Below, in pieces: positions 21,931 to 50,961 of a stretch of DNA of 64,000 bases. This DNA comes from Escherichia phage mogra: sequence record MN850579.1. The stretch is one strand, 5' to 3'. The position numbers were made by a program, and so were the translations under genes. The notes under the pieces were generated by a model, which did no database searches, was not told the DNA's origin, and saw only the letters and a list, made by a program, of their open reading frames with translations. Within the stretch, counting starts at the first letter, position 1. Each line of letters opens with the position of its first letter.

Positions 21931-21932
21931 AT

Positions 21933-21958: not shown

Positions 21959-21961
21959 TAA

Positions 21962-28027: not shown

Positions 28028-28035
28028 TTTAATTC

Positions 28036-28329: not shown

Positions 28330-28331
28330 TT

Positions 28332-28847
28332 TCACGGCCTCACATAAACATAGTTTCGTAATTGTTGAGCCCATTTGCTCCAATTTCCTACTATAGTTTT
28401 TGTATAAACCTTAGTAAGAGTTTTTTGTACTGGAGCCGGTGGAGGTTCTGTACCAGAGTCACTTCTAGAACCGCCTGATGAACTTTCTTCTTGGTAGTTA
28501 TAAATCATTTCAACCGTATAACTAAACACTTTACGAAGATTCTGAGGAGCTCTCCACAAATATAACTGTGTGGATTCATCTTTTGGTAAATCATCCCATG
28601 AAGATGCGGTTTCAAAATCATCATTTAATCGGTATTTCAATGCGTCCGAAGAAAAGCTAAACACACTTTCATATGTTCCATATAAACGATTACCATCTAC
28701 CGTAATGCCTTGTGTCGGTTCATAATCTGTTATATTTATTGACACTAAAGTTTCGGTTGTTTCTAACTGTGGAGTAAAAAGGACGTCAATAGACGCCCCT
28801 TCCATGTCTTCTCCTAAGTCGGTATTTAAAGGAAGTATTTGTGCCAT
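28332..28847 (-). CDS. 5.1: gp5.1-like protein
   Basis: 171 aa ORF immediately downstream of gene 5. Confidence 0.6.
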
Positions 28848-28850
28848 ATA

Positions 28851-30584
28851 TTACCCAATATCAATACGAGATCCGTCAACAGTGTATTGTCCTGAAGCTA
28901 CTGAGCTCATTGTAGACATTGTTTCTGCCCAATCCCCGGCAACAGTCATGTCAACATTACCATTAACAGTCCATTTAACGTTTCCGTTGACGGTGTAATC
29001 ATGATTCCCTTCGACCTGAGTTTTAGCATCACCTTTAACAAGAATATCTGCATTTCCGTCAACAACTATTTTGATATTACCCTTAACGTAAAGAGTTCCA
29101 TCGCCTTCAACAGTTTTAGCTTGGTTACCACGAATAAAGATTGTGTCATTGCCGTCTATTTGATGGAGGCGGTCTGCCATGTTATAATATATTTCATTAG
29201 CACCAACGTTAACAAGCTTATCGCCAGAAATCAAGAAGTTCCCATCACCATTAGTGATGTCAAAAAGGTCTTCTACAGTTTTACGAGTACGACGCCCAGA
29301 CGGAGAAACTTCCTCATATGACCCTGTTGGATGAACTAAGCGATAACGTTCATTACCTGGAGTATCGTCAAATTCTTGGATATGACCACTTTCTGTTTCC
29401 ATAGCATGAACATATGGGTACTCACCACGATAACTTGATTCCGGTTCTTTAAAAAGGATGCGTGAATCTAATGGAACAGGAGGACCAGCCGGGTCTTCTG
29501 AATCGGTATTTCTAGTAACTAAATCGGCACCAACTCCTGGTGAAGGCGGTGTTTTAACAGGAACACCGTATGATTCCATGTTACCAGTTAAAATAATTGT
29601 TGTTACACGTGAAGCGCGTCCTTTAGTCTGTTGGAACCATAATGAATCGCGCCCAGATTTGTATGCAGTTTTCCAATCGCCTTCGGCCATTGCTTTAAGC
29701 ATAGTATTGAATTTTGCTACACCACCAACGCCCATTTGGAAGCACATGTTTTCTAATGCCATTTGGCGAGATCTGTTCATTTTAGCATAAACAGGACCTA
29801 CTTTAGAATTAGAACGAATGTCTTTCTGCATCTTAGCAAGGTCCTTCTCAAATAACGCTGTTGCTTCTTCTAATGTAATAGTTCCGGGATTTCCTGTTAC
29901 TTCACGCCCTACTTGATCAGATAACAATTTATTAATTCGAGACATATCTCGGGTCTTTTCCATTACGATAAGGTGTCCAATACCTACTGTAGGATACCCG
30001 AGATGGTCCCAATACACTTTATCACGAAGACCTTCGTCACGACGTAACATTTCTGTTATTGTAAAATTAGGGTCATCATCTTCTGGAATATTTGCTAAAT
30101 CTGTATCGTCTGGGTTTATACCATAATCCAAGTTGTTATCTTGAATTACGTTAGAGTTCGAATAATAACCAGCTTCACCACCTTGGTTTAATACGTTCGT
30201 ATCATTACCTAAACGTCGCGGATACTGGCCTGTCGGGTCTGAAAAACCTTCAAGTCTATTAGGCTTTTCACGTACAATTCCGCCATATGTACCAAGTACA
30301 ATTCCGTTTGTTTTCCATTTGTCTAAGAAATGACCATATACTCGAGTTCCTTCAACAGGACCTGTAACAGAACCACCAATACCTGACATTGATGCAGACG
30401 TAATAGGTTGAATAACAGTCATCCATGGAAGTTTTTCTGTAGGAATACCCTGCACATCGCCTTGTACTCTCTGTGCGGGATGAAGCCCAACTACTCGCAC
30501 TCGAACTCGCCCTTGTTTTAATGGGTCCATTCTGTCCTCGACAACACCCACGAACCAATTAAGGCTACTGCTAATCATTTCCAT
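28851..30584 (-). CDS. 5: gp5 baseplate hub / tail lysozyme
   Basis: 577 aa; central T4-lysozyme-like domain and C-terminal beta-helix repeats (VKGNIKIVVDGNADILVKGDAKTQVEGN...). Confidence 0.95.
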   Translation of the reverse strand: MEMISSSLNWFVGVVEDRMDPLKQGRVRVRVVGLHPAQRVQGDVQGIPTEKLPWMTVIQPITSASMSGIGGSVTGPVEGTRVYGHFLDKWKTNGIVLGTYGGIVREKPNRLEGFSDPTGQYPRRLGNDTNVLNQGGEAGYYSNSNVIQDNNLDYGINPDDTDLANIPEDDDPNFTITEMLRRDEGLRDKVYWDHLGYPTVGIGHLIVMEKTRDMSRINKLLSDQVGREVTGNPGTITLEEATALFEKDLAKMQKDIRSNSKVGPVYAKMNRSRQMALENMCFQMGVGGVAKFNTMLKAMAEGDWKTAYKSGRDSLWFQQTKGRASRVTTIILTGNMESYGVPVKTPPSPGVGADLVTRNTDSEDPAGPPVPLDSRILFKEPESSYRGEYPYVHAMETESGHIQEFDDTPGNERYRLVHPTGSYEEVSPSGRRTRKTVEDLFDITNGDGNFLISGDKLVNVGANEIYYNMADRLHQIDGNDTIFIRGNQAKTVEGDGTLYVKGNIKIVVDGNADILVKGDAKTQVEGNHDYTVNGNVKWTVNGNVDMTVAGDWAETMSTMSSVASGQYTVDGSRIDIG

Positions 30585-31159
30585 TATGCAATCTCCATCT
30601 CACGAATCAAATCAGTAATAAACGAGTTTATATCTTCTTTTGCAACAATTTTTATTTTACGAAGTTTTTCATTATCTAATACTGCCGCTTCATAAGTATC
30701 TACTGCAGCTAAAGGTCCTTTATATTGCGGATACTTACGAGCTTCATCACCTTTATCATACCAAACTAAAGGCTCGTCTGGATATGAAACTAAATTGTAA
30801 AATTTCTCACGGTTCTCATTAATATGGTAAAGAATTTGGTCTCCACCAGCATTAGCATATTTCTGAATAGAAGCTTGATACGCTGCTTCCTGAGATGTAA
30901 TCCAACCATAATACGGGTCGTAGTTATCGTTGCACATCAAAAGAACCCAGTATAATTGCGGGTTGCCATAAATGATATTCGCTAGTTCTTCAGGACGTGG
31001 AGAGCCTTTAATATAATAAGAACGTAATCTATAATTGGCAGCAACACGCTTAAAGTACTCTTTATAGTTACGAAATATATCTGTCATAGGAATAGTAGGT
31101 GCGTTCTTATTAACTGTTTTAGCACTATATCCTATCGGGTCGAAGAATGTAAATAACAA
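30584..31159 (-). CDS. 53: gp53 baseplate wedge protein
   Basis: 191 aa in T4 gene 53 position upstream of gene 5. Confidence 0.88.
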   Translation of the reverse strand: MLFTFFDPIGYSAKTVNKNAPTIPMTDIFRNYKEYFKRVAANYRLRSYYIKGSPRPEELANIIYGNPQLYWVLLMCNDNYDPYYGWITSQEAAYQASIQKYANAGGDQILYHINENREKFYNLVSYPDEPLVWYDKGDEARKYPQYKGPLAAVDTYEAAVLDNEKLRKIKIVAKEDINSFITDLIREMEIA

Positions 31160-31186
31160 GATAGTCTCCTTCCAATATGAAATTGG

Positions 31187-31194
31187 TATAAATA
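31187..31194 (+). promoter_or_regulatory. Late promoter (TATAAATA) for gene 4
   Basis: Plus-strand TATAAATA 27 nt upstream of gene 4 ATG. Confidence 0.6.
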
Positions 31195-31201
31195 ATAATA
31201 C

Positions 31202-31209
31202 TATTTATA
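31202..31209 (-). promoter_or_regulatory. Late promoter (TATAAATA) for gene 53 operon
   Basis: Minus-strand TATAAATA 43 nt upstream of gene 53 ATG; divergent from gene 4 promoter. Confidence 0.55.
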
Positions 31210-31220
31210 AGGAGGACAAC

Positions 31221-31670
31221 ATGGCCTACTCTGGTAAATGGGTCCCAAAAAATTTAAAAAAATACCGTGGAGACCATACCAAAATAACGTATCGTTCAAA
31301 CTGGGAAAAATTCTTTTTCGAATGGTTGGATAAAAATCCAGAAATTATTGCATGGGGTAGTGAAACAGCAGTAATTCCATATTTTTGTAATGCTGAAGGT
31401 AAGAAACGTCGATACTATATGGACATATGGATGAAAGATGCATCAGGTCAAGAGTTCTTTGTAGAAATAAAACCAAAGAAAGAAACTCAGCCACCTATTA
31501 AACCGGTGAATCTTACAACTGCGGCTAAGAAACGTTATATGAATGAAATCTACACGTGGTCTGTGAACTGTGACAAATGGAAAGCTGCCTCAGCTGTTGC
31601 TGAAAAGAGAAATATAAAATTTCGAGTTCTAACCGAAGATGGTCTTAGAAAACTCGGATACAAGGGGTAA
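31221..31670 (+). CDS. 4: gp4 head completion protein
   Basis: 149 aa; T4 position adjacent to gene 53; strong SD TAAGGAGG. Confidence 0.88.
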
Positions 31671-31672
31671 TT

Positions 31673-32494
31673 ATGAGCATATTCCAAATTATATCTGAAG
31701 GCGTACAAGCCCCTAAGATTGCTCAGTCTATGAATGAAAGAAAATGGATTGAGATAGGATTAGAATACAAGAAAGCTAAAGAGAAAGGAATCACTGCAAA
31801 AGCATTTGCAGAATCAAAAGGAATAAAATACTCGTCGTTTACATCTGCAATGTCTAGATATGCATCATCTATTAAGACTGCACAGAAAATTGAAACGCTT
31901 GAATCTAAACCTAAAAATAAACTCAATAAGCAAGAACGTCAACTTCTGATGATAAACTCGTTTCGCAGTTCAATACGAGAAAAGATTAGAAATGAAGGCG
32001 CAGCAGTAAACAACAAATCATCTAAGTGGTTTGTTGAAACAATTAAGAAAAGTGTAAAAGGTCATAAAGTAGTCAAGCCTACACCAGGCAAAATTTATAC
32101 TTACGTGTATGATGCTAAACATAAAGATACTCTACCGTATTGGGACAGATATCCTTTGATTATTTATTTAGGATTAGGTAAACATAATTTGATGTATGGG
32201 TTAAACTTGCACTACATCCCACCTAAAGCACGACAACAGTTTCTTGAAGAATTGCTGAAGCAATATGCTAGCACAACTACTATTACTAATAACACAAAGT
32301 TGAAGATAGACTGGAGCAAGGTGAAAGGATTTCAAGGTGCTGACAAAATGATTAAAGCATACCTGCCAGGCCACATTAGAGGAACAATAACAGAAATAGC
32401 TCCTAAAGACTGGGCTAACATAATCATGTTACCTACTCAGCAGTTTATGTCAAAAGGAAAACGTTTCTCTGCGAATACTGTTTGGAAATCTTAA
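31673..32494 (+). CDS. 2: gp2 DNA end protector protein
   Basis: 273 aa in T4 gene 2 position. Confidence 0.88.
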
Positions 32495-32588
32495 TTCTAT
32501 TCTCTTCCGTTCTTCTGTTGAACCAGATTAATGGAAGAGACCTAAAACCATTATACTGCATTTTTATTAAAGCGTTTTTGAGGTGCTT

Positions 32589-33173
32589 ATGACTCGTCCA
32601 ACGAGACAGATTTTTAACCAAACAAATATAACAAACTTTGTTGTGGATATCCCAGATAGTACACGAACTTCAGGTTTTGTGCTCAATGCCCAAACGGCTC
32701 CATTGCCAGGTGTGAGAATTCCTGTTGTTGAAACTGTGACAGGCACGATGGGGTTAGGACGTGCAATGCGTGCAGGCACCACATTTGAATACGACCCTTT
32801 TGTTGTACGATTTATAGTTGATGAAGACATGACGTCCTGGATGAACATGTATAAATGGATGCTCAGCACTAATAACTATATAACCGGACATAATACGGCA
32901 CACTCCGATGGTCCTGAGTTTGTTACTTTGCACATTTTAAACAACAATAAGACTGAAGTAGTTTTGACGGCGAATTTCTATAAACCATGGATTTCCGATC
33001 TGAGCGAAATTGAATTTAGTTACACTGAAGATTCTGACCCTGCCGTTACGTGCGTAGCAACTATTCACTACGCGTATATGACGATAGAAAAAGACGGCGA
33101 AGTCATTGTATCTCAACAACCACGTCAGGCGGCCGAATCTAAATCCATTTCTAGACACCCTTCCTTGCGTTAA
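32589..33173 (+). CDS. 3: gp3 tail completion / tail tube terminator
   Basis: ATG after GAGGTG SD (ORF-track start is an upstream GTG); T4 gene 3 position. Confidence 0.85.
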   Translation: MTRPTRQIFNQTNITNFVVDIPDSTRTSGFVLNAQTAPLPGVRIPVVETVTGTMGLGRAMRAGTTFEYDPFVVRFIVDEDMTSWMNMYKWMLSTNNYITGHNTAHSDGPEFVTLHILNNNKTEVVLTANFYKPWISDLSEIEFSYTEDSDPAVTCVATIHYAYMTIEKDGEVIVSQQPRQAAESKSISRHPSLR

Positions 33174-33226
33174 TCGCTTCTAGCTCCGTATGTTATAATC
33201 ACTCATAAATTATATGAGGAAAACCT

Positions 33227-33961
33227 ATGGAGCTAATCTTTTTAAGTGGCATCAAACGTAGTGGTAAAGACACTACTGCTGATTATATCAATTCAAACTT
33301 TAAATCCGTAAAATACCAATTAGCATATCCAATTAAAGACGCTCTAGCAATAGCCTGGGGACGTAGGCATGCTGAAGATCCTGATGTATTCACTGAGTTG
33401 AAATACGAATACTTTGAAGGCATTGGATACGACCGTGAAACACCATTAAATCTCAATAAGTTGGATGTTATTGAATTATTGGAAGAAGCGCTAATTTATT
33501 TGCAAAGCAAATATTTACCAATTAATAATGTTAAAGTATTATCATCGTTAGAAGGTGGATATTCGTATCTAGATATTAAACCATATGAAGCCATGCGTGA
33601 AGCTATAAATAATATCAACGACACATGGTCAATCCGCCGTCTTATGCAAGCCCTCGGTACGGATGTTGTCGTTAATTTATTTGACCGTATGTATTGGGTT
33701 AAGCTTTTTGCATTAAACTATATGGATTATATTGGAAGTGATTTCGATTACTATGTCGTAACCGATACACGTCAAGTCCATGAAATGGAAACCGCTAGAG
33801 CGATGGGTGCTACAGTTATTCATGTGGTTCGCTCTGGTACGGAATCCACCGATAAACATATTACAGAAGCTGGGTTGCCTATTGAAGAAGGCGATTTAGT
33901 TATTACAAACGACGGCTCTTTAGAAGAGCTTTATTCTAAAATTGAAACAATCTTAAGGTAA
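33227..33961 (+). CDS. 1: gp1 dNMP kinase
   Basis: 244 aa; P-loop SGIKRSGKDTTAD matches T4 gp1. Confidence 0.93.
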   Translation: MELIFLSGIKRSGKDTTADYINSNFKSVKYQLAYPIKDALAIAWGRRHAEDPDVFTELKYEYFEGIGYDRETPLNLNKLDVIELLEEALIYLQSKYLPINNVKVLSSLEGGYSYLDIKPYEAMREAINNINDTWSIRRLMQALGTDVVVNLFDRMYWVKLFALNYMDYIGSDFDYYVVTDTRQVHEMETARAMGATVIHVVRSGTESTDKHITEAGLPIEEGDLVITNDGSLEELYSKIETILR

Positions 33962-33965
33962 TAAA

Positions 33966-34651
<686 letters not shown>

Positions 34652-34664
34652 TTTTCACAAAACA

Positions 34665-34730
34665 GTTTACATAAGGATGTTGGTGTGATACTATCATCCT
34701 ATCAAATCACAAACCAAACGGAAAAAACAA
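34665..34730 (+). promoter_or_regulatory. Early promoter cassette (PeSL-like)
   Basis: GTTTAC -35, 17-bp spacer, GATACTAT -10 between GGATG/CATCC arms. Confidence 0.65.
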
Positions 34731-35042
34731 ATGAAAACTTATCAAGAGTTTATCGCTGAAGCTACTAAAGCCGATAAAAATTTTATTATTAACACCACCG
34801 GTCCGTTAGATGATGAATACGCTAATGCTATTATTAAGTCAATTTCTAATCAAGGCGTTGAAGTAACAAATTTCGAATATAAGAAAAATGATACTTATAT
34901 GATAATTAGTATCAAAAAAGGTTCAAAAGCCAAAATTAAATCTGCGTTTGGTGTTATGCGAGTTGACCAAATCGATAACCACGATTTTTCACAAACAGGG
35001 GTCAAACGCCAAAATACCATTTCTTCTAAAGGCATAAAATAA
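34731..35042 (+). CDS. ipI: Internal protein (IPI-like) with capsid-targeting sequence
   Basis: N-terminus MKTYQEFIAEA is the T4 capsid-targeting sequence with gp21 L/I-x-E site; next to 57B as in T4. Confidence 0.75.
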   Translation: MKTYQEFIAEATKADKNFIINTTGPLDDEYANAIIKSISNQGVEVTNFEYKKNDTYMIISIKKGSKAKIKSAFGVMRVDQIDNHDFSQTGVKRQNTISSKGIK

Positions 35043-35103
35043 TTTACAACAAGATAGGACTATGTTATAGTAGTCCTATCAAAACAACCAAACGGAACCT
35101 AAA
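35043..35103 (+). promoter_or_regulatory. Early promoter cassette (PeSL)
   Basis: TTTACA -35, 17-bp spacer, TGT-TATAGT -10 in loop of TAGGACTA/TAGTCCTA 8-bp hairpin. Confidence 0.7.
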
Positions 35104-35367
35104 ATGAAAACTTTCAACGAATTCATCTCAGAATCATCTGGTGTGAAAATTAACAAAGCGGTCAATCAGGTTATTGCTGATATTCTTAATTTGTATAACA
35201 TTGACTTAACTCCGCATATCACGCTTGGTAACAAACGAAACTTTTTCATATTTGACACATCTGAACTTGATGAAAATCGGTTCAATAACATTCAACGTTT
35301 TGCGAATGATAAAGGTCTTCGACACGAGCCTGGTGGCTATAAAAAATACGCAATATATTTGAAATAA
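35104..35367 (+). CDS. Capsid-targeted small protein (CTS-bearing), function unknown
   Basis: N-terminus MKTFNEFISES resembles CTS with I-x-E site. Confidence 0.65.
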   Translation: MKTFNEFISESSGVKINKAVNQVIADILNLYNIDLTPHITLGNKRNFFIFDTSELDENRFNNIQRFANDKGLRHEPGGYKKYAIYLK

Positions 35368-35370
35368 AGG

Positions 35371-35437
35371 TATACAAGCCTATAGGGATATGTTATAGTA
35401 GTCCTATCAAAACAAAATGAGTAAATGGAGAAATAAA
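35371..35437 (+). promoter_or_regulatory. Early promoter cassette (degenerate PeSL)
   Basis: TATACA -35-like, 17-bp spacer, TATAGT -10, conserved leader AAAATGAGTAAATGGAGAAATAAAATG. Confidence 0.5.
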
Positions 35438-35623
35438 ATGAAACGCGCTGAACTGATTCGTAATGTTGCTGTAGTAATTGCTTCAATGGCTTTTAGTTTT
35501 TCGATGTTTGTAGGATTCATTTGTGGACTACTGACAACAACAGAAAATTCTATCTCATTGGTAGTAGCATTTCTAATCGGCTTAATCGCTATCGTTATGG
35601 ATAAAATTGCAAAAGGTGAGTAA
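35438..35623 (+). CDS. Small membrane protein (two predicted TM helices)
   Basis: Second ATG chosen (GGAG SD 10 nt upstream); hydrophobic stretches. Confidence 0.6.
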   Translation: MKRAELIRNVAVVIASMAFSFSMFVGFICGLLTTTENSISLVVAFLIGLIAIVMDKIAKGE

Positions 35624-35624
35624 A

Positions 35625-35987
35625 ATGAAATATCATGTATATGCTGATTTTGAAGCAAATCCTTCTAAAGACCCTGATTGTCGTTTGATACGCAGACCAT
35701 TTGATTCAGCAGCCCAAGCATGGGCTTGGATTAAAACTTGTACTCCTTCTTACACTTTCTTTGAAGTGGTAGATGATAACGGTGTTCTGCATCCAGAACC
35801 TACAGAAACTATTAATTTCCTTCTGTTTGCTGGTTATGACTGTTATCCTCTTGGTGGTATTGACGACCTTGTTGCTATAGGAAAAACTGTTGAAGCTCTT
35901 CGCGAAATTTATAAAAACGCGGAAGAAAATTTTGACTGGTATCATATCGTTGATGCTCATACCTTTGAAATGGTGGAACATTCATGA
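35625..35987 (+). CDS. Hypothetical protein
   Basis: ATG after GGTGAG SD; 120 aa ORF. Confidence 0.6.
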   Translation: MKYHVYADFEANPSKDPDCRLIRRPFDSAAQAWAWIKTCTPSYTFFEVVDDNGVLHPEPTETINFLLFAGYDCYPLGGIDDLVAIGKTVEALREIYKNAEENFDWYHIVDAHTFEMVEHS

Positions 35988-36274
35988 TTCTTTATGCTAA
36001 AGTATCGTCCATTGAGAACGGATATGAAAGCGACCAACGAGCAGCTAAAGCGTTAGTTGATGACTATGGTATTCTGACTATCTTTGAGGTTGAAAAGGTT
36101 TATATCGACCGTTCATCTTCACAAGTTAAATTACTCTGTGAAGACGTTAAATTTAACACAGTTAACTTTGATTTCTTTATTGAAACAGAAAAAGGCCCTC
36201 TTGAATATGATATTTTCAAGAACCCTTTGAAATTACGTTGCATTGAATATAACTACATTAATATGGTACGGTAA
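35984..36274 (+). CDS. Hypothetical protein
   Basis: 96 aa ORF, ATGA overlap with upstream gene. Confidence 0.6.
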   Translation: MILYAKVSSIENGYESDQRAAKALVDDYGILTIFEVEKVYIDRSSSQVKLLCEDVKFNTVNFDFFIETEKGPLEYDIFKNPLKLRCIEYNYINMVR

Positions 36275-36370
36275 AACGTAATTTGCTTTAAGAATTATGT
36301 GTTATTATTAATCTACCCTCTATTACCAAAGGTGCTCCCTCAAGTGCCTTTCATAATAGAAAGTTATTTA

Positions 36371-36445
36371 GGCCCTGTAGCTCAATGGGAGAGCTGTCAG
36401 CTCATAACTGATAGGTAGCTGGATCGAAACCAGCCAGGGCCACCA
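36371..36445 (+). tRNA. tRNA with CAU anticodon (Ile2 with lysidine, or Met)
   Basis: Hand-folded cloverleaf: acceptor GGCCCTG/CAGGGCC, D arm GCTC-AATGGGA-GAGC, anticodon loop CTCATAA, T arm GCTGG/CCAGC, encoded CCA. Confidence 0.8.
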
Positions 36446-36545
36446 ATTCGCGGTGAGTACGCTCTTAGGTAGGTAAGTTGTTCGAATAAGGGTTAAAAGT
36501 AGAACCTACAAACGAGTAACCCTGAAACACCCAAAGCCGCATCAT

Positions 36546-36622
<77 letters not shown>

Positions 36623-36640
36623 ACTTCAAGTGAGGAAAAT

Positions 36641-36985
36641 ATGAAAGGCAATATTTATTTGGTAGTTCATGATTTAACGTTTTATTTTAACGAACAGGAT
36701 ACAGTTATTTCCGACCGGTTGATTAATTCGTTATATCAACACGCTGATTACGTTTATTTTAAAAATGAATTAGGACATTGGAAGTTTCTTAAAAACCGTT
36801 CCGGGTTAACTAGTTTTGAATACTTTGACCGTAAAGACCTTTTAAACGAAATTCCATTACAACATCGGTTCCAGAAACGCGAATCACTATACTATTGTCG
36901 CCATATACCAAATGCTGAATGTGTTTATGAAGCGATTAATCTATGGCGTCGACGTCGAGAGCAAATTGATGATATGCCAAAATAA
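36641..36985 (+). CDS. Hypothetical protein
   Basis: ATG after GAGGAAAA SD just 3' of tRNA-Arg; ORF-track start 36593 would overlap the tRNA. Confidence 0.6.
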   Translation: MKGNIYLVVHDLTFYFNEQDTVISDRLINSLYQHADYVYFKNELGHWKFLKNRSGLTSFEYFDRKDLLNEIPLQHRFQKRESLYYCRHIPNAECVYEAINLWRRRREQIDDMPK

Positions 36986-36989
36986 GAAG

Positions 36990-37260
36990 CCGGGTCGCTA
37001 CCGGCAAGTCGTCGGACTGATGTTCCCTGAGTAAGGACTGGTCTTAATAAATCTTTATGTTTTGTTAATATCCCCTTACATCACAGCAGAAACGGCGCAC
37101 CGAATTATCGATTCGAGGAAATATCTTTGCCGTAAGCCGAGTAGCGTTTTTGACGGAACGTTCGGATATGGTCGAGATATGGCCTTTTAAAAATATTGAG
37201 TAGCGTCAACTACTTAATAACCGGGTTCGAGTCCCGGCGTTTCGTACAAACACTTGCCTT
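36990..37260 (+). ncRNA. Candidate structured small stable RNA(s) downstream of the tRNAs
   Basis: About 300 nt with no ORF, several hairpins (GCCGG-TCGCTA-CCGGC; T-arm-like CCGGGTTCGAGTCCCGG), ending in a terminator; T4 has stable RNAs C/D next to its tRNAs. Confidence 0.35.
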
Positions 37261-37267
37261 AGCAGGT

Positions 37268-37297
37268 GGAACCCCGACAAGGTTGGGGCTTTTTTTG
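37268..37297 (+). terminator. Rho-independent terminator
   Basis: AACCCC...GGTTGGGGC hairpin followed by T7. Confidence 0.75.
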
Positions 37298-37340
37298 CAT
37301 AATAATAAATAGATAAGTTAATTAACTTAGGAAAAGCAAC

Positions 37341-37805
37341 ATGAAATCATACGCTGAATTTTTGACTGAACAATCTAGTTCAGATGTAAAAGCCGCTGCG
37401 ATTGCAGCAATTCAAGCAGGTAAATATTCTTACAAAGACGCCTCTGATGAAGAACGTTTCCGTTTTATTAGAGATTTTAAAGCCGAAGGTTTTACTAATG
37501 CTAATACTGTTAGCCGAGTTTTTAAAAGCCTAGCTGCATCAGGTGAATTGTTCCAGAAAGCTACAGGTAAAGCACCTGCACCAAAAGCGGACCCTAAAGC
37601 CGCTCAAGAAAAAAATATCGCCAAAGGAATTATTTCTAAGTATGAAGCAATTCTTAAAGAGCTTTTAGTAATCAAAACAGAAGGCCAGAAACTGGCACGA
37701 GCACATAGCTTCAAAGATAATCCTCACGCTCATAGCCTTGAGTATGTTGAAGATATCCAAAAACTTATTAAAGACCGTATCTGGTCTGCTAAACAAATTA
37801 AATAA
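37341..37805 (+). CDS. Capsid-targeted protein (CTS-bearing), function unknown
   Basis: 154 aa; N-terminus MKSYAEFLTEQ resembles CTS with L-x-E site. Confidence 0.65.
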   Translation: MKSYAEFLTEQSSSDVKAAAIAAIQAGKYSYKDASDEERFRFIRDFKAEGFTNANTVSRVFKSLAASGELFQKATGKAPAPKADPKAAQEKNIAKGIISKYEAILKELLVIKTEGQKLARAHSFKDNPHAHSLEYVEDIQKLIKDRIWSAKQIK

Positions 37806-37811
37806 TAGAAT

Positions 37812-37838
37812 GCCCCTTCCTTACGGTTGGGGCTTTTT
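37812..37838 (+). terminator. Rho-independent terminator
   Basis: GCCCC...GGGGC hairpin + T5. Confidence 0.7.
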
Positions 37839-37871
37839 GGTATCTAGGGCATAAAAATATTTCATAAAGAT

Positions 37872-37928
37872 GTTTACTTCTTCCCTAGATGTGTTACTAT
37901 AGACCTATCAAAACATGGGGAGAATATT
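37872..37928 (+). promoter_or_regulatory. Early promoter cassette (PeSL-like)
   Basis: GTTTAC -35, GTTACTATAG -10 region, SD GGGGAG. Confidence 0.65.
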
Positions 37929-38432
37929 ATGAGTCTTTACACTGAACTGAATAAAAAATCTGAAGAATCTGCTGAAACTATTTTTAAAAACGTGCAAAAG
38001 CGTATTTTAGAAAAGATGTATAACGCTGCAGCTAAAGGTGAAAAATCTTGCCGGTTTCCGATTAGGTGTTCTTCAGATTTATGCGCAAATACTATTGAAT
38101 GGCTGGAAAGTGAAGGTCTTACGGTAGAGAAAAACCCGGCGACTTCTATTGATAGCGAATCATATATTAGTATTTCTTGGGATAAATCAAGGGTAGAAGA
38201 GAAAGATGGTGATTGGGTTGTAGATGTTAAAACTTCTGATGGTGGACGTTCTGTTGAAGTTTCAGCTGTAGTTAAAGGTACCCACGAACAAAGGACTTGG
38301 GGTTGGGGTGGTGAAGAAAAAGAAATTGTTCTTAGTGTGATTGCCAGGTCAACTAGTAATAAAATTGCACAAAGCATCATTGACGCTGCAATTGCTGAAG
38401 CAGAAAAAATTTGCAAAATTAAAAATAAATGA
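37929..38432 (+). CDS. Hypothetical protein
   Basis: 167 aa ORF after promoter cassette. Confidence 0.65.
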   Translation: MSLYTELNKKSEESAETIFKNVQKRILEKMYNAAAKGEKSCRFPIRCSSDLCANTIEWLESEGLTVEKNPATSIDSESYISISWDKSRVEEKDGDWVVDVKTSDGGRSVEVSAVVKGTHEQRTWGWGGEEKEIVLSVIARSTSNKIAQSIIDAAIAEAEKICKIKNK

Positions 38433-38491
38433 TGTACAAGCACCAAGGATGGTGATACTATAGACTTATCAACTACAGAGGAGTAAACAAA
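38433..38491 (+). promoter_or_regulatory. Early promoter cassette; 46-nt identical to copy at 1613-1658
   Basis: TGTACA -35-like, CACCAAGGATGGTG palindrome, GATACTATAG -10, GAGGAG SD. Confidence 0.65.
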
Positions 38492-38656
38492 ATGACTACT
38501 TTAATTATTTGGTTCGATGAAAATGAAGAAACATACTGTGTGAATATTGGTGAAAGTCCAATGCCTGAATTTGAATCCTCAGATAAAAACTCTGTTGTAT
38601 CTTGGGCTGAAGGTTATAAAGCAGCTAAAGGTGACGTTGAAATAATTTACATCTAA
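38492..38656 (+). CDS. Small hypothetical protein (54 aa)
   Basis: ATG 9 nt after GAGGAG; MTTLIIWFDENEETYCVNIGESP... Confidence 0.5.
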   Translation: MTTLIIWFDENEETYCVNIGESPMPEFESSDKNSVVSWAEGYKAAKGDVEIIYI

Positions 38657-38702
38657 GTAAGTTTATGTTATAGTAGTCCTATCAAATCAAGAGGAAAACA
38701 AA
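38646..38702 (+). promoter_or_regulatory. Early promoter cassette (PeSL)
   Basis: TTTACA -35 inside end of preceding ORF, 17-bp spacer, TATAGT -10, TAGTCCTATCAAA box. Confidence 0.55.
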
Positions 38703-38930
38703 ATGGCTAAAGTTAGTATTGATGTCGTTGATTATGAATACACTGAAGAAGTTATTCGCAACCGTCACCCTGAAGTTCGTATCGATTCAGTCCAAGATTC
38801 CAAGTTCTGGACAACTGAGCTTAATCTGAGTGGTCCTTATGAAGCCGTTAAGAAGTTCATGGTTGAAGAATACTGTGAAGGCATGCACCCGGAAGACGCC
38901 AAGTTTTATGTCAATTTGATTAAAAAATAA
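38703..38930 (+). CDS. Hypothetical protein
   Basis: 75 aa ORF, SD AGAGGAAAA. Confidence 0.6.
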   Translation: MAKVSIDVVDYEYTEEVIRNRHPEVRIDSVQDSKFWTTELNLSGPYEAVKKFMVEEYCEGMHPEDAKFYVNLIKK

Positions 38931-39000
38931 TTTACAAACTCTTGAGAGCAGAGTATAATGCTCTCATTGGATAATAAACCACCAATTGAAAGGTAATAAT
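38931..39000 (+). promoter_or_regulatory. Early promoter in stem-loop
   Basis: TTTACA -35, 17-bp spacer, TATAAT -10 in loop of TGAGAGC/GCTCTCA hairpin. Confidence 0.7.
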
Positions 39001-39594
39001 ATGAACACACTGAAGAAACTTGTTGAATTCATCCGCACTAAACTGGGTACTGCTATGGCTAAAAATCTGACTGTCGAAGAACAGTATAACGCAGCTGCAG
39101 ATAAGTTGATTACCCAAATCAAAGAACTAAAAACGGCTTCTGTTAAATCTATTAATGAAGAAAAACGTATTCGCGAACTTGTTAATGAAAAGAACAAGCA
39201 AGCCGCTTCTAAGGAACTTGAAATTCGTAAGCTCCTGGCTGAAGGACAAGATGTTACTATGCATGCTAAGCTTGGTCTTCTGTATCGTCGAACTGCCGAA
39301 CAACTTAATACAAAAGCTGACGGGTATGCCGCTATGCGAATTGAAATTGCTCGTAAGGTGGTTGAACTTGACGATGCTCGTCAGAACCTGGCAATCAAAC
39401 TCGAATACATTCGTGAAACTCGAGCAGCCAATGCCCTTGGTATCTCTACGGCCGATGATGTAATTGAAATCGCTGCACTGACTAAGGTTGATATCGAAGA
39501 CACTCTGACTCGTGTTGAAACGTTCAATGGCACTCCAGCCGGCGTCGAAACCACTTCTGCTGATGTACAAGAATATATTAACTCTTTGAAATAA
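39001..39594 (+). CDS. Coiled-coil protein with PspA/IM30-like character
   Basis: 197 aa, heptad-rich; loose resemblance to PspA family by eye. Confidence 0.5.
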
Positions 39595-39602
39595 AATAAT
39601 AC

Positions 39603-39624
39603 GGAGGACTCCGGTCCTCCTTTT
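39603..39624 (+). terminator. Rho-independent terminator
   Basis: GGAGGAC-TCCG-GTCCTCC + TTTT. Confidence 0.8.
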
Positions 39625-39643
39625 GGATAATAAAGGAGTTAAC

Positions 39644-40246
39644 ATGCGAAACCAAAATAATGATATTGACTCAATGTTCGAAGAGTTCCGAGATAAGGTA
39701 AATCCACCTACGTCTTTAGTTGATTCATTACGATATGTTGCAACTGGACGTAAATGGTACTGGTCGTCTTCTTATGAGACCACCGAGAAAACGGCTAGCC
39801 ATAGCAGAAAATCTTTATTAGCCCCAGGTATTATGATTCATGATATCGGAGCTATTGCTAAACTAGTTGCAGACCATGATATTAGATTCACTGATTTCGT
39901 TGCTCCTACGTGGTCTGTTTGTTGTTTAAACACTGAATGGGAATATATCAGCGAACGCTCTGAAGATTATTATGGCTTTAGAGATAAGCTTCTGAGGTCT
40001 AATATGTTTTATATCGATACAGAAGTTCTAGTCGATAATAAAAAATATTACTTTACGTTAATCATCGATTCTGAAACTATGTATGAAGGCAAGCCTTTGC
40101 TTAAGAGAGTTGATGCTTTAAGTGCTATTGATGCGCTTTATGAAACTATGGTTGTTAGTCCTAATTTCACTAATAATTTAATCCTTGAGCAATTTATTAT
40201 GGAATGTAGAGAATATGTCAAAGCCAACCCTATACATGCCAAGTAA
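39644..40246 (+). CDS. Hypothetical protein
   Basis: ATG after AAGGAG SD; about 200 aa; C-terminal ...QFIMECREYV. Confidence 0.65.
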   Translation: MRNQNNDIDSMFEEFRDKVNPPTSLVDSLRYVATGRKWYWSSSYETTEKTASHSRKSLLAPGIMIHDIGAIAKLVADHDIRFTDFVAPTWSVCCLNTEWEYISERSEDYYGFRDKLLRSNMFYIDTEVLVDNKKYYFTLIIDSETMYEGKPLLKRVDALSAIDALYETMVVSPNFTNNLILEQFIMECREYVKANPIHAK

Positions 40247-46542: not shown

Positions 46543-46803
46543 ATGAAAATGTATCAAGAATTTATCGCTGAAGCAGATGCCAAAGGTCCTAAATTTAAAG
46601 TTAAAGCTTTCATTGGTGATGCCGAAGACTTTGGCTCATTAAAACGTAATGGGTATTCTTTCTTAGGTGGCGATGGTAAAGAAATCAACACCTATGCAAA
46701 ACGTAGTGAAATTGCTTATGTTGTAGCAAGTCCTAAAGTAGATGTTGACGATATTGGATACGATTTTAACAACTTCGGAATTATTTCTGGCGGTAAAGCT
46801 TAA
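46543..46803 (+). CDS. Capsid-targeted protein (CTS-bearing), function unknown
   Basis: 86 aa; N-terminus MKMYQEFIAEA. Confidence 0.65.
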   Translation: MKMYQEFIAEADAKGPKFKVKAFIGDAEDFGSLKRNGYSFLGGDGKEINTYAKRSEIAYVVASPKVDVDDIGYDFNNFGIISGGKA

Positions 46804-46866: not shown

Positions 46867-47445
46867 ATGAAAACGTATAAAGAATTTATCGCCGAGGCCT
46901 TTGCAGGAAAAGCTCAAGGCATTAATAAGGACGAGTGGAATTATCGTGGCGGAAACGGCTTTGACCCTAAAACTGCTCCACTTGAACGATATCTGGCCAC
47001 AAAAGCTTCTGATTTTAAAGCCTTCGCTTGGGAAGGACTACGCTGGCGTAACGATCTAAATATTGAAGTTGACGGACTTAAATTTGCTCATATTGAAGAT
47101 GTTGTTGCTAGTAACTTAGACGCAGCTTTTGTTAAAGCCGACAGTGACCTTCGTCGCTGGAATTTAAAACTGTTCTCTAAACAAAAAGGCCCGAAGTTTG
47201 TGCCTAAAGCAGGTAAATGGGTCATTGATAATAAATTAGCTAAAGCTGTCAACTACGCCGGTCTTGAATTTGCCAAGCATAAATCATCATGGAAAGGTCT
47301 TGATGCAATGGCTTTCCGTAAAGAATTTGCCGATGTTATGGCTAAAGGCGGCTTTAAGGCAGAAATAGATACAACTAAGGGCACGTTTAAAGACGCTAAT
47401 GTTCAGTACGCTTACGCCGTTGCTAATGCAGCCCGTAATTCCTAA
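46867..47445 (+). CDS. Internal protein (IPIII-like size) with capsid-targeting sequence
   Basis: 192 aa; N-terminus MKTYKEFIAEA; size close to T4 IPIII. Confidence 0.7.
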   Translation: MKTYKEFIAEAFAGKAQGINKDEWNYRGGNGFDPKTAPLERYLATKASDFKAFAWEGLRWRNDLNIEVDGLKFAHIEDVVASNLDAAFVKADSDLRRWNLKLFSKQKGPKFVPKAGKWVIDNKLAKAVNYAGLEFAKHKSSWKGLDAMAFRKEFADVMAKGGFKAEIDTTKGTFKDANVQYAYAVANAARNS

Positions 47446-47486: not shown

Positions 47487-47789
47487 ATGAAAACATATCA
47501 AGAATTTATTACTGAAGCGCGAGTGAGTGCAGGTAAATTAGAAGCCGCTATAAATAAAAAGGCCCATTCATTTCATGATTTGTCCGATAAAGACCGTAAG
47601 AAACTTGTAAGCCTTTATATTGACAAAGAGCGTATTCTCGCTCTTCCTGGCGCTAATGAAGGTAAACAGGCCAAGCCTTTGAATGCTGTCGAAAAGAAAA
47701 TTGATAACTTTGCTTCTAAATTCGGTATGTCTATGGATGACCTTCAGCAAGCGGCTATCGAAGCAGCTAAAGTAATTAAAGGTAAATAA
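47487..47789 (+). CDS. Internal protein (IPII-like size) with capsid-targeting sequence
   Basis: 100 aa; N-terminus MKTYQEFITEA. Confidence 0.7.
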   Translation: MKTYQEFITEARVSAGKLEAAINKKAHSFHDLSDKDRKKLVSLYIDKERILALPGANEGKQAKPLNAVEKKIDNFASKFGMSMDDLQQAAIEAAKVIKGK

Positions 47790-47791
47790 CA

Positions 47792-47853
47792 GTTTACTTT
47801 CTCCTAGAATTGTGATAGTATATTCATAATTACTTGGAGGGGTAAATACAGAA
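47792..47853 (+). promoter_or_regulatory. Early promoter cassette (PeSL-like)
   Basis: GTTTAC -35, GATAGTAT -10 region, TCTCC/GGAGG arms. Confidence 0.55.
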
Positions 47854-47902
47854 ATGGACAATTCATGCGCCACGGAATGGCCCAACCTAAAAGAGAAACT
47901 AA

Positions 47903-48442
47903 ATGAGAACATTTTTAACTGGTCCTTATCTATCCCTGATGAATGCTTTTACACACCATTCTGATGCTAGAGTAGAAGAAATTTGTAAGAATGGTTATGT
48001 CCCACCATTTGAAGACGTACTCAAGCAGTACTGTACACTTCGTTTAGACGGTGGCAGACAATCAGGTAAATCGTCCGCAGTAACTAATTTTGCTGTTAAT
48101 TGGCTATACGATGGTGGAACAGTTATTGTTCTTTCTAATACTTCAGCTTATGCTAAAATTTCTGCTGGCAACATTAAAAAAGAATTTTCTCGTTATTCTA
48201 GCGATGATATTCGATTCCGTTTATTTACTGATTCTGTTCGTAGTTTTATTGGCAATGAAGGTTCTAAATTCCGTGGATTAACGCTTTCTCGTATTCTGTA
48301 TATAATTGACGAGCCTATTAAAGCTCCTGATATGGATAAGATTTACAATGTCCACATTAAAACAGTACAGCACTGCTGCAAAAGCAAATATTGCATCGGC
48401 GGTAATGCTCGTCCTCAATTTTTTGTGATTGGAATGCAATGA
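47903..48442 (+). CDS. P-loop NTPase-like hypothetical protein
   Basis: 179 aa; Walker A-like GGRQSGKS and Walker B-like LYIIDEP; weak SD. Confidence 0.55.
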   Translation: MRTFLTGPYLSLMNAFTHHSDARVEEICKNGYVPPFEDVLKQYCTLRLDGGRQSGKSSAVTNFAVNWLYDGGTVIVLSNTSAYAKISAGNIKKEFSRYSSDDIRFRLFTDSVRSFIGNEGSKFRGLTLSRILYIIDEPIKAPDMDKIYNVHIKTVQHCCKSKYCIGGNARPQFFVIGMQ

Positions 48443-48747
48443 TGACCACTATTGAAGTTTTTGAGTATTGTTATAACAGCCCAGTATGCAATAAAAGGGC
48501 TCTTGTAGAAAATTACGAGATTTACCATTTTAAACCTAAACGATATCGTTTGACTAAAGGTCCGTTCGCAGGGCAGCAGGTTCTTTGTACTGCTCCTAAT
48601 GCACGGTTGATGACTAGTATTCCACATTTCAAAATGGAATTTATTGATGGGCCATTTAAGGGATTAATCACTCAAAGTTTAATGGCGTTTAATTCCGACC
48701 CATTTTTGATTAAAGAAAAATCTTGGATAAATTTATTTTCTAATTGA
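48439..48747 (+). CDS. Hypothetical protein
   Basis: 102 aa; ATGA overlap. Confidence 0.6.
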   Translation: MMTTIEVFEYCYNSPVCNKRALVENYEIYHFKPKRYRLTKGPFAGQQVLCTAPNARLMTSIPHFKMEFIDGPFKGLITQSLMAFNSDPFLIKEKSWINLFSN

Positions 48748-48753
48748 GGTTAT

Positions 48754-49116
48754 ATGAAAGCATATCAAATTCTTGAAGGTACACATAAAGGCACTATTTA
48801 TTTTGAAGACGGTACTCAAGCCCGGATTATCGTCTCTAAGACTTTTAAAGAAGACTCTATTGTAGACCCGGAAATTTTCTACGGTTTGCATGCCCGTGAA
48901 ATTGAAATTGAACATCAACCTAAAGTTAAAATTGAAGGTGGTCAACATCTGAACGTTAACGTTCTGCGTCGTGAAACTCTGGAAGATGCAGTTAAGCATC
49001 CGGAAAAATATCCGCAGCTGACCATCCGTGTATCCGGTTATGCAGTTCGCTTTAACTCTCTGACTCCGGAACAGCAGCGCGACGTTATCGCTCGTACCTT
49101 TACTGAGAGTCTATAA
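48754..49116 (+). CDS. Autonomous glycyl-radical cofactor (GrcA/YfiD-like; T4 Y06I-type)
   Basis: 120 aa; glycyl radical motif RVSGYAVRF; C-terminal half appears near-identical to E. coli GrcA from memory. Confidence 0.88.
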
Positions 49117-49340
49117 TGGCTAAATTGATTATAGAAGGGTCTGAAGATGTTTTAAAATGTTTTGCCGCCTGGTTTAGTTGCTCAGGCGAGCAATCATTCA
49201 TTGAAGCATTTAGAACGGGTGATATTACTGGAAACTATCCGACAACTGATATCACTGTACGTGGATATGGTATTAATGAGCCTATCCAATTGGTCGAATA
49301 TGACCTTGCCACCGATGAGGAAATTCCTTATGTCGATTGA
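49116..49340 (+). CDS. Hypothetical protein
   Basis: 74 aa, ATGA overlap with upstream gene. Confidence 0.55.
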   Translation: MAKLIIEGSEDVLKCFAAWFSCSGEQSFIEAFRTGDITGNYPTTDITVRGYGINEPIQLVEYDLATDEEIPYVD

Positions 49341-49596
49341 AGACATCAAAGGCTACAAGCCACATACCGACGATAAAATCAGTAAAGTGAACGCTATTAA
49401 AGATGCAGAAGTCCGTCTTGGATTGATGTTTGATGCTCTGATTGAAGAAGCATATATCTTTAAAGAAAATGAAACAGAGCAACAAACCAAAGAAGATATG
49501 GATGCAGTGCAGGCTCTTAAGTATGCTAAGCAACATCTAAAAGAAGCCAGCATGTGGGCATGTCGTGCAGTATTTCGACCTGAGGAAAAATACTAA
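49330..49596 (+). CDS. Hypothetical protein
   Basis: 88 aa from internal Met of ORF-track 49162 ORF. Confidence 0.55.
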
Positions 49597-49895
49597 TGGC
49601 TCAAATCCTATCAGGCTTTGGAACTCATTATGAAGCATCTAGACGCATAACTGAAAGCAATCCTTTTGGCCTTGTTCCGAAGCACAAGAAAATTCAAAGC
49701 CTTGATGACTTTGAGAACCGCCTATGGGCCCTCTTTAATGAGTACAAGGCATATCTGAAAGAAGACGCTGACTATTGTCTTGAAGAAGATGAGATTGCGT
49801 ATTACGAACAACGCCTTGAACAGCTCAAGAACTTCCGTCAGGTTCGTGACGAAGTATCTAAAGCAGTTAAAAAGTTAATTCCTTTCAAAGAGTAG
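49596..49895 (+). CDS. Hypothetical protein
   Basis: 99 aa; ATGG overlap. Confidence 0.6.
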
Positions 49896-49951
49896 TTTAC
49901 TTCTCCTCTAGTTGTGTTACTATAGACTTGTCAACTAGAGGAGAAATCAAA
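49895..49951 (+). promoter_or_regulatory. Early promoter cassette (PeSL-like) for regB
   Basis: GTTTAC -35, GTTACTATAG -10 in loop of TTCTCCTCTAGTTG/CAACTAGAGGAGAA hairpin that also contains the SD. Confidence 0.7.
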
Positions 49952-50410
49952 ATGACTATCAATTCGGAAGTTTTTATCCGCCGTAATAAACTCCGTCGAA
50001 TCTTTGAAACGGAGTTCCGCAAAATAAATGCCGGTATAAAAGATGCTGCAAAGTCTCTTGGACTACCAGGCTTTCATATCAAGTATTCTCAACATCTCTT
50101 AGATCGTGCCATCCAGAGAGAAATAGATGAGAATTACGTTTTTGAATTATTTCATAAAGTAAAAAATCATGTTAAAGAAGTTGCAGAATTTTTATCAATG
50201 CCGGCACGTCCGGATGTTGATGAAGATTTTGTCGAAGGTGTCGAATATCGCCCAGGCCGTTTAGAAATAACTGATGGAAATCTTTGGTTAGGACTTACAG
50301 TTTGTCGCGAAAATCCAGCATTCAAAATGAAGACTCTTCAATGCAGAATGGCTATTATTAACAGTAAACGACTACCAGGAAAAGCTTCTAAAGCAGTGAT
50401 TAAAATCTAG
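49952..50410 (+). CDS. regB: RegB endoribonuclease
   Basis: 152 aa; MTINSEVFIRRNKLRR...LQCRMAIINSKRLPGKASKAVIK close to T4 RegB. Confidence 0.93.
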   Translation: MTINSEVFIRRNKLRRIFETEFRKINAGIKDAAKSLGLPGFHIKYSQHLLDRAIQREIDENYVFELFHKVKNHVKEVAEFLSMPARPDVDEDFVEGVEYRPGRLEITDGNLWLGLTVCRENPAFKMKTLQCRMAIINSKRLPGKASKAVIKI

Positions 50411-50418
50411 AGGTAAAC

Positions 50419-50961
50419 ATGAGAAAAGCACTACTCGCTGGTCTATTTGCTCTTTCGTTATCAGCACATAGCTCCGAGCATACTTTTAGTAATGTCCAAC
50501 TCGATAACTTGAATTATGCTTATCAGTTTGGGGAACAGTTTTCTAAGGATGGAAAATTTAAAACGCATGAAAATATGCATAAGAAAGGACTTGGATACAT
50601 AATGGCCGCAATACTATGGCAAGAATCATCTGCCGGTATTAATCTTAAAGATAAGAAAGGTCACCATGCGTATGGAATGTTCCAAAACTATCTACCAACA
50701 ATGAGGGCAAGAATTAACCAGCTTGGGTATAATATGACTGATGCCCAAATTAAGAAAATGCTATCTAAGCGGTCTAATTCAACCAGATGGGCTTATATCG
50801 AATTTTCTTATTGGTTAAATATACATAACGGGGATATAAGAAAAGCTATATCCTCATATAATGCTGGATGGAAGACAAGTGCTGGAAGTAAATATGCTTC
50901 TGAAGTCCTAGAAAAGGCTAATTACCTTAAATCAAATAAACTACTGGAAATAAAAGAATGA
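50419..50961 (+). CDS. Secreted soluble lytic transglycosylase (SLT domain)
   Basis: 180 aa; signal peptide MRKALLAGLFALSLSAHS; SLT motifs E-S (WQESSAG), GMFQ, SYNAG. Confidence 0.7.
   Translation: MRKALLAGLFALSLSAHSSEHTFSNVQLDNLNYAYQFGEQFSKDGKFKTHENMHKKGLGYIMAAILWQESSAGINLKDKKGHHAYGMFQNYLPTMRARINQLGYNMTDAQIKKMLSKRSNSTRWAYIEFSYWLNIHNGDIRKAISSYNAGWKTSAGSKYASEVLEKANYLKSNKLLEIKE

Follow-up and report, generated by a model that had tools for sequence, protein, structure and literature searches.

Host-derived grcA sequence within the T-even phage gene vs.6 and a parallel tract in Klebsiella phages

We analyzed a 64,000-nucleotide (nt) stretch of DNA from Escherichia phage mogra (sequence record MN850579.1), referred to below as the window, and focused on an open reading frame (ORF) of the plus strand at 48754..49116 that encodes a protein of 120 amino acids (aa) followed by a stop codon. 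The ORF listing, synteny, and profile matches identified this gene as the ortholog of T4 vs.6, which encodes Y06I, a GrcA-like autonomous glycyl-radical cofactor (vs.6 is annotated in T4 as "autonomous glycyl radical cofactor GrcA"). The gene starts with ATG, with a GAGG Shine-Dalgarno sequence 6 nt upstream, and the last A of its TAA stop codon is also the first letter of the start codon of the following ORF (TAATG). The T4 and window genes are identical at 341/363 nt and at 115/120 aa (96% at the protein level), and the record closest to the window gene is that of Escherichia phage vB_Eco_F27 (Mosigvirus), with 99.4% identity over the gene. The phage is a T-even phage of the Mosigvirus-like type. 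The gene order around vs.6 (denV, internal-protein-like ORFs, a vs.8-like and a vs.7-like gene, vs.6, a vs.5-like gene, regB, vs.1, and vs) is of the T4 type, and the neighbors of vs.6, which is flanked by vs.7 and vs.5 in the early region spanning denV to regB, match the annotation of both T4 and F27.

The protein belongs to a known family. The RVSGY glycyl-radical motif was located at 49027-49041 (plus strand, aa 92-96) by direct reading and by alignment to GrcA and pyruvate formate-lyase (PFL) structures, with the radical glycine encoded by the GGT codon at 49036-49038 and Gly95 of the phage protein corresponding to Gly102 of GrcA. The Pfam domain Gly_radical (PF01228) covers residues 59-101 (E=2e-18), the nuclear magnetic resonance structure of GrcA (PDB 6owr) aligns to residues 21-120 (phmmer, E=1e-42), and residues 57-120 align with the C-terminus of PFL (residues 696-759, E=3e-26). 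The GrcA/YfiD class, as described by TIGR04365 and IPR011140, comprises small stand-alone proteins of about 14 kDa with the RVSGY motif and a glycyl-radical domain, homologous to the PFL C-terminus, in their last 60 or so residues, and both features were found in the phage protein.

Codon alignment with grcA of Escherichia coli revealed that the gene is a mosaic, in which a phage-type 5' segment (48754..48933, plus strand, aa 1-60) is followed by a host-derived conversion tract (48934..49107, plus strand, aa 61-118) that encodes the glycyl-radical domain and corresponds to E. coli grcA nt 202-375. A preliminary description, drawn from the letters of the window, had reported that the C-terminal 60 or so residues, RVSGY included, look near-identical to E. 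coli GrcA; the alignment bore this out, as the motif is present exactly and the last 60 residues are 100% identical. At the nucleotide level, the comparison that this description had proposed for measuring identity and locating the breakpoint gave 172/174 identical positions between phage nt 181-354 and E. coli grcA nt 202-375, with mismatches at window positions 48948 (CAT/CAC) and 49107 (GAG/GAA) and a longest exact run of 158 nt (48949-49106). The 39 nt directly upstream of the tract (phage nt 142-180) hold 14 mismatches to E. coli grcA (36% of sites), a density far from the 2/174 found within the tract (Fisher p=4.8e-10). Codon usage, which it had also suggested comparing, separated the two halves as well: the GC content of third codon positions (GC3) amounts to 0.25 over the first 180 nt versus 0.414 in the tract, which is the very value of the E. 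coli grcA tract, and the flanking phage genes (0.24-0.39) are comparable to the 5' half.

This host-like segment stands alone in the window. A megablast search of the 64 kb against 5,426 complete E. coli genomes returned a single matching segment, 48932-49124, plus a weak match to the pflB paralog, and there were zero matches to this genome collection in window positions 1-20000 and 20001-40000. All 5,426 genomes match the last 183 nt of the phage gene at 96.7-97.8%, in every case within grcA, between ung and eamB. Between the window and T4, the 5' half of vs.6 differs at 17/180 positions and the tract at only 3/174 (p=0.002); the gene as a whole is 94% identical, whereas the surrounding 2.7 kb or so (window 47840-50500) is merely 76% identical, with many gaps. 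The tract is thus younger than the phage genera, since it is far closer between the two phages than are the 5' half and the flanks. The unconverted 5' half, at 90.6% identity between window and T4, is itself still better conserved than the neighboring DNA.

The tract begins and ends within the gene. Its 5' edge coincides with the onset of strong nucleotide homology, at the GAAGG of the EGGQHLNV codons. At the other end, the last 10 nt of vs.6 in the window (GAGAGTCTATAATG) are phage-type: GAGAGTCTATAATGGC is common to the 3' ends of unconverted Pseudotevenvirus and Slopekvirus genes, and its E. coli counterpart is GAAAGCCTGTAA. As this phage-type end (AGT CTA TAA, which together with the TAATG overlap with the vs.5-like ORF of 49116-49340 occupies 49108..49118 on the plus strand) matches the unconverted genera, unlike E. 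coli, the 3' edge of the host tract can be placed within the gene. Host flanking DNA was not imported, and intragenic ends of this kind point to homologous recombination that replaced a patch within a homolog already present. The 3' terminal codons vary among phages, from GAG AGT CTA in the window to GAA AGT TTG in T4 and GAG AGC TTG in contig L097. We speculate that the phage-type last codons might be kept as a Shine-Dalgarno sequence for the downstream ORF; the 3' end resembles one in Jiaodavirus (GAGG) and in the window (GAGAG), but reads GAAAG in T4.

The 5' segment is AT-rich and encodes a strongly diverged homolog of the GrcA N-terminus. Upstream of phage nt 142, the phage gene and E. 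coli grcA align at the protein level alone, with gaps, and an hhalign comparison of phage and host GrcA N-termini gave a probability of 92.7% (E=4e-7, 42 columns, 33% identity), with intermediate phage forms bridging the phage and host types. NCBIfam model TIGR04365 (GrcA equivalog) scores the phage protein at 158 bits over residues 18-120 and E. coli GrcA at 233.9. The earlier statement that the N-terminal 55 residues are distinct therefore holds as regards their strong divergence but not if taken to mean that they are unrelated, and an unrelated N-terminal fusion is excluded by the homology that hhalign, TIGR04365, and the 6owr alignment trace from about residue 18-21 onward. Homology to GrcA accordingly extends over the full length of the protein and beyond the radical domain, as the hhalign and 6owr alignments indicate. 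T4-like phages of Klebsiella, Enterobacter, and Citrobacter with 3' parts unlike that of E. coli have the same type of N-terminus (52-93% aa identity). The tails of Pseudotevenvirus, Slopekvirus, Karamvirus, and Krischvirus genes are 25-43/174 nt (28-47 of the last 183) away from every sampled host. Because its N-terminus is common to phages without E. coli-like tails, vs.6 is best regarded as an old full-length phage homolog of grcA, in which the E. coli tract is the derived part.

The E. coli tract is widespread among T-even phages. T4, F27, and six T-even contigs from IMG/VR carry it with 1-4 differences over 174 nt (2-6 of the last 183) and with an identical 5' edge, and their 5' halves are of two types, T4 and Mosigvirus. 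A 41-mer from the tract matched about 640 phage records at 95% identity or more, reference T4 included. In a neighbor-joining tree of the tract, Escherichia grcA and the T-even phages formed a clade with 97.6% bootstrap support, in which monophyly of the phages received 0%; the tract therefore groups with the host while the 5' half is found in phages alone, a case of phylogenetic incongruence. Each T-even phage lies a few, mostly private, sites away from the E. coli sequence. One common E. coli polymorphism falls within the tract, at grcA position 240 (T/C, as in strains 1190 and W3110, each allele being present in about half of the sampled genomes), and the same position is polymorphic in phages, with the exact T 41-mer in 431 records and the exact C 41-mer in 76. 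The C allele was found both in Mosigvirus F27 and in contig L096, which has a T4-type 5' half. Larger distances were seen in the E. coli phages a15, Ozark, and VIPECOMC06, which carry 6-7 synonymous differences from E. coli over the 174 nt. These could reflect either other Escherichia donors or older, decaying tracts; in VIPECOMC06, four of six differences are GC-to-AT changes (positions 270, 282, 303, and 336), which would fit the direction of decay expected once a host tract resides in an AT-rich genome. Phages a15 and Ozark share 213G, 225A, and 240C, and 225A is present in an Escherichia sp. genome too. Some T-even phages labeled as infecting Yersinia, Citrobacter rodentium, or Serratia also carry the E. 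coli tract despite these host labels.

A parallel tract was found in phages of Klebsiella. The grcA gene of Klebsiella pneumoniae, a species absent from the 80 that a genome-contig scan for grcA returned, was taken, together with that of Klebsiella aerogenes, from chromosomes mislabeled as plasmids in PLSDB. Used as a query, it matched 106 phage records at 95.9-98.2% identity from grcA nt 202 (199 in one record) to nt 369-374. Most of these records are Klebsiella phages of about 166 kb, those retrieved individually are classified as Jiaodavirus, and the 5' boundary of their tract is identical to that of the E. coli phages. Phage KPV15 carries K. pneumoniae-specific synonymous variants and differs from K. 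pneumoniae grcA at a single position over nt 202-359, as compared with 3 mismatches in Nispero, 7 in Phi_KR8, and 14 in PKO111; the Nispero tract stays host-like a few codons farther toward the 3' end than that of KPV15. The clade of K. pneumoniae and Jiaodavirus, as defined in the tract tree, received low bootstrap support (8-29%) because the tracts differ in age, and the Klebsiella claim rests on the raw identities for this reason. The two Klebsiella-type residues (LLDAVEH instead of LEDAVKH) are encoded by Klebsiella phages, among them the Slopekvirus phiKp_11, which has no recently converted tract. The presence of these residues hints that a host-matched radical domain may matter, and it could equally be the trace of an older conversion. 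With grcA of Salmonella enterica as the query, no phage exceeded 83.8% identity, and with that of Enterobacter asburiae none exceeded 88.7%, so that tracts of the Salmonella and Enterobacter types are absent among the phage records searched.

Several records touched by these searches deserve comment. In KPV15 (KY000080.1), the 5' half of vs.6 carries a frameshift that could be a sequencing error or mark a pseudogene, and its 3' 51 codons alone are annotated, as "pyruvate formate-lyase". The record of vB_Kpn_AM_K4 (PP355766.1, 288,685 bp) places a Jiaodavirus-type vs.6 near tRNA genes and opposite-strand ORFs rather than next to vs.7 and vs.5, and may be a chimeric or concatenated assembly. The K. 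pneumoniae tract is also carried by a phage named "Salmonella phage PSE-D1". A 19-kb "viral" contig (IMGVR_UViG_2706794630_000006) holds a full-length grcA of the bacterial type (MITGIQITKA...) whose last 183 nt differ from the Yersinia artesiana gene at 16 positions; it probably represents host DNA and not a phage gene. Among the host records, the "plasmids" of PLSDB include complete and partial chromosomes such as a 5.37-Mb K. pneumoniae "plasmid unnamed2" (source records CP125156.1 and LR134122.1), and grcA of K. aerogenes NCTC10006 is annotated as truncated owing to a 1-nt insertion in an A-run.

These comparisons establish not only the mosaic structure of vs.6 but also the direction of transfer, the host specificity of the donors, and a minimum of two events. 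The direction is from host to phage because the grcA genes of E. coli and K. pneumoniae fit enteric taxonomy and host composition, and the allelic diversity of E. coli encompasses the phage tract. Since Klebsiella phages have a tract of the K. pneumoniae type that starts at the same 5' boundary, conversion must have taken place at least twice, independently and from different hosts. Host-to-phage gene conversion of the 3' part of vs.6, at least twice independently, is in our judgment very probably the right explanation and the best of those considered. In this model, the starting gene would be an old, phage-adapted, full-length grcA homolog, whose 3' part of about 174 nt, coding for the radical domain, would have been overwritten through homologous recombination with the grcA copy on the chromosome of the infected host. 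The replacement would be bounded by the extent of nucleotide homology between phage and host, from the EGGQHLNV codons to just before the stop/start overlap, and relatives that infect Klebsiella would have undergone the same replacement independently, from K. pneumoniae grcA. After conversion, the tract would drift by synonymous changes, several of those observed being GC-to-AT. T4 possesses a very active recombination system (UvsX/UvsY/gp46-47) that readily rescues markers from short homologous segments, and fragments of host DNA released by infection are a plausible donor. We infer a UvsX-type reaction with such fragments as the mechanism; how fast it may run at present, and what advantage a host-matched radical domain might bring, are likewise matters of inference.

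Three other accounts of the tract fared poorly against this evidence. Purifying selection on the protein combined with shared optimal codons might produce such identity with no transfer at all, given the extreme protein-level conservation of the radical domain and the high expression and preferred codons of grcA. The decisive control was the set of grcA genes from the 80 other species found by the genome-contig scan. Twelve of these code for exactly the same 58-aa segment and nonetheless differ from E. coli at 13-28 of the 174 nt, in Citrobacter, Trabulsiella, Edwardsiella, Serratia, Pectobacterium, and other genera with similar codon preferences, or at 2 nt in the case of an Escherichia sp., and Salmonella grcA shows 33 differences from the phage over the last 183 nt. 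The identity of the tract therefore goes beyond what protein constraint explains, which is the point on which the preliminary description had made its proposal hinge. The genes of phages Margaery and phi5, with the same protein tail, also differ at 26-29/174 nt, the 5' half of the very same gene uses AT-rich phage codons, and Klebsiella phages share synonymous variants specific to K. pneumoniae. We dropped the codon-bias and purifying-selection explanation on these grounds, the divergence at identical protein and the Klebsiella-specific variants being enough to refute it, and give it next to no credence; by nucleotide comparison, the tract reads as specifically E. coli sequence, with an identity far above that expected from protein conservation or chance. 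Transfer in the reverse direction, from phage to E. coli or Klebsiella, or an artifact of assembly or contamination, is just as hard to credit: nothing specific speaks in its favor, and it is refuted by host tracts that follow taxonomy and host GC3, by the finding of the tract within grcA, flanked by ung and eamB, in every E. coli genome searched, and by its presence in some 640 independent phage records. A recent capture of the whole gene from E. coli, after which the 5' half was replaced or diverged rapidly, could draw on the alignment of the N-terminal half with GrcA. We consider it very improbable, because the N-terminal type occurs in T4-like phages of other hosts with non-E. coli 3' parts and is hence older than the tract, because mismatches jump from about 1% in the tract to 36% at phage nt 142-180, and because the last 10 nt are of the phage type common to unconverted genera.

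How often conversion has occurred is less clear-cut. The preliminary description had proposed a recent transfer or an ongoing conversion; the transfer is upheld by the near-identity of the tract and by the Klebsiella parallel, and continuing conversion is suggested by the T/C polymorphism at grcA 240 shared between phages and hosts and by the variable 3' ends. As a tentative reading, to which we give somewhat less than even odds, the radical half of vs.6 may evolve in concert with grcA of the current host, with recurrent and possibly frequent homologous recombination during lytic infection overwriting the same patch of about 170 nt. A rather less likely possibility, though a serious one, is that each host group saw one recent transfer, which then spread from phage to phage among T-even genera with no continuing host exchange. 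Such a history would account for the shared 5' boundary and for the mutations, mostly private, that radiate star-like from the E. coli sequence in all E. coli T-even phages examined; the flanks of the gene offer homology for phage-phage exchange, and Krischvirus, Pseudotevenvirus, and T5 have stayed unconverted on the same host. It sits less well with the occurrence of both grcA 240 alleles in phages with T4-type and with Mosigvirus-type 5' halves, with 3' endpoints that vary (T4 versus the window, Nispero versus KPV15), and with the 1, 3, 7, and 14 mismatches of the Jiaodavirus tracts, which fit events of different ages or donors. Repeated conversion followed by drift would thus fit the data. 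Several observations weigh against the explanation by host-to-phage conversion as a whole or limit its reach. Recombination between phage and chromosome is deduced here by comparing sequences, and host DNA is broken down by T-even phages soon after infection begins. The boundary shared by E. coli and Klebsiella phages could stem from selection rather than from a limit of homology, the T/C polymorphism is a single synonymous transition that could recur by mutation, and the tract shared by Tequatrovirus and Mosigvirus could derive from one host event followed by phage-phage recombination. The tails of Pseudotevenvirus, Karamvirus, Krischvirus, and T5 genes are 28-51 of the last 183 nt away from every sampled host, and among these, Krischvirus, Pseudotevenvirus (RB43/RB16-like), and T5 remain unconverted on E. 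coli. Conversion is therefore not automatic, as these phages and the lack of Salmonella- and Enterobacter-type tracts indicate, and a general tracking of the host by all GrcA-carrying phages was rejected as unsupported on account of those nulls and the unconverted genera. In the Dhakavirus JS98, tblastn found no vs.6 homolog in 45 kb (NC_010105, 45000-90000), and the syntenic site holds vs.4, a vs.5-like ORF, vs.7, and vs.8 in order, without vs.6; the gene is thus dispensable, or has been lost, in some E. coli T-even phages. Finally, the phage protein falls just short of the curated TIGR04365 cut-off (158 against 170 bits), a shortfall attributable to its diverged N-terminal half.

The function of the gene can be predicted from its relatives. 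T4 Y06I, like YfiD, is reported to restore the activity of oxygen-cleaved PFL (Wagner 2001, as summarized in PMC8683613), which agrees with what the preliminary description had stated about Y06I. By homology to Y06I and to GrcA/YfiD, the window protein would be activated by the host PFL-activating enzyme, with the radical residing on Gly95, and is predicted to act as a spare part that takes the place of the C-terminal radical domain of host PflB once oxygen has cleaved it. The window gene and T4 vs.6 agree in their neighbors, in the 3' tract identical to E. coli, and in its 5' boundary; the proteins differ in five residues (T21I, I36F, H54P, K57T, and R73H) and the genes in their last three codons. 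With E. coli GrcA the window protein has in common the RVSGY radical site, the two-part architecture, and a homologous N-terminal half; unlike GrcA, it is 7 aa shorter, is weakly similar over the N-terminal 60 aa, and is encoded in the AT-rich early region of a lytic phage, in translational coupling with its neighbors. Small stand-alone glycyl-radical proteins with RVSGYAVRF are also encoded by T5-like phages, Krischvirus, Pseudotevenvirus, Karamvirus, and contigs of about 350 kb, but the 3' parts of these genes, at 28-51 of the last 183 nt from any sampled host, show no recent host conversion. Some of these genes, such as that of Entb43, have AT-rich codons (GC3 0.21).

The interest of the locus is evolutionary, since gene, family, and biochemical role have all been described and annotated before. 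In the literature searched, we found neither the nucleotide mosaic of vs.6 nor the corresponding tract of Klebsiella phages described, although an earlier mention is possible. The nearest precedent is that of the cyanophage genes psbA and psbD, host-like auxiliary metabolic genes that have undergone intragenic recombination between host and phage (Sullivan et al. 2006, PMC1484495). As in the psbA case, vs.6 is a host metabolic repair or replacement gene in a lytic T4-like phage, with patch exchange, a mosaic structure, and host-specific clustering; a host-like segment with intragenic breakpoints, phylogenetic incongruence, and alleles of the phage's own host in different phage lineages were all found. 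Unlike in psbA, the patch is one defined block of about 170 nt that is essentially a host allele, the remainder of the gene is far more diverged from its host counterpart, and the setting is that of enterobacterial T-even phages, which degrade host DNA and modify their own. The locus thus provides an enterobacterial counterpart to psbA and, together with the tract of the Klebsiella phages, documents recent DNA exchange between strictly lytic T-even phages and the host chromosome on at least two occasions.

Some practical consequences follow. The vs.6/grcA pair offers a simple, testable system for measuring host-to-phage recombination in the best-studied phage. The tract might also serve as a sequence marker of the recent host species of a phage, and may outperform the isolation host as an indicator of the evolutionary host. 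Annotators and contamination filters should be aware that the host-identical segment in these phage genomes is genuine. If concerted evolution with the host gene, with E. coli alleles in Tequatrovirus and Mosigvirus and K. pneumoniae alleles in Jiaodavirus, proves true, it would constitute natural evidence that strictly lytic phages continue to sample the chromosome of their host in spite of degrading its DNA, and matching of the radical domain to the host might then be adaptive for recognition by host PflA and PflB.

In the surrounding region, a scan for promoters and terminators around vs.6 yielded nothing exceeding shuffled expectation. Three consecutive plus-strand ORFs located 3' of denV (46543-46803, 46867-47445, and 47487-47789) encode proteins starting with MK(M/T)YQEFI(A/T)EA, a start that resembles the cleaved capsid-targeting leader of the T4 internal proteins (ipII/ipIII region). 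The MKAYQIL start of the vs.6 protein was considered as kin of these MK(T/M)YQEFI leaders, and the resemblance was judged coincidental because MKAYQIL aligns with MITGIQIT of host GrcA and is shared by T5.

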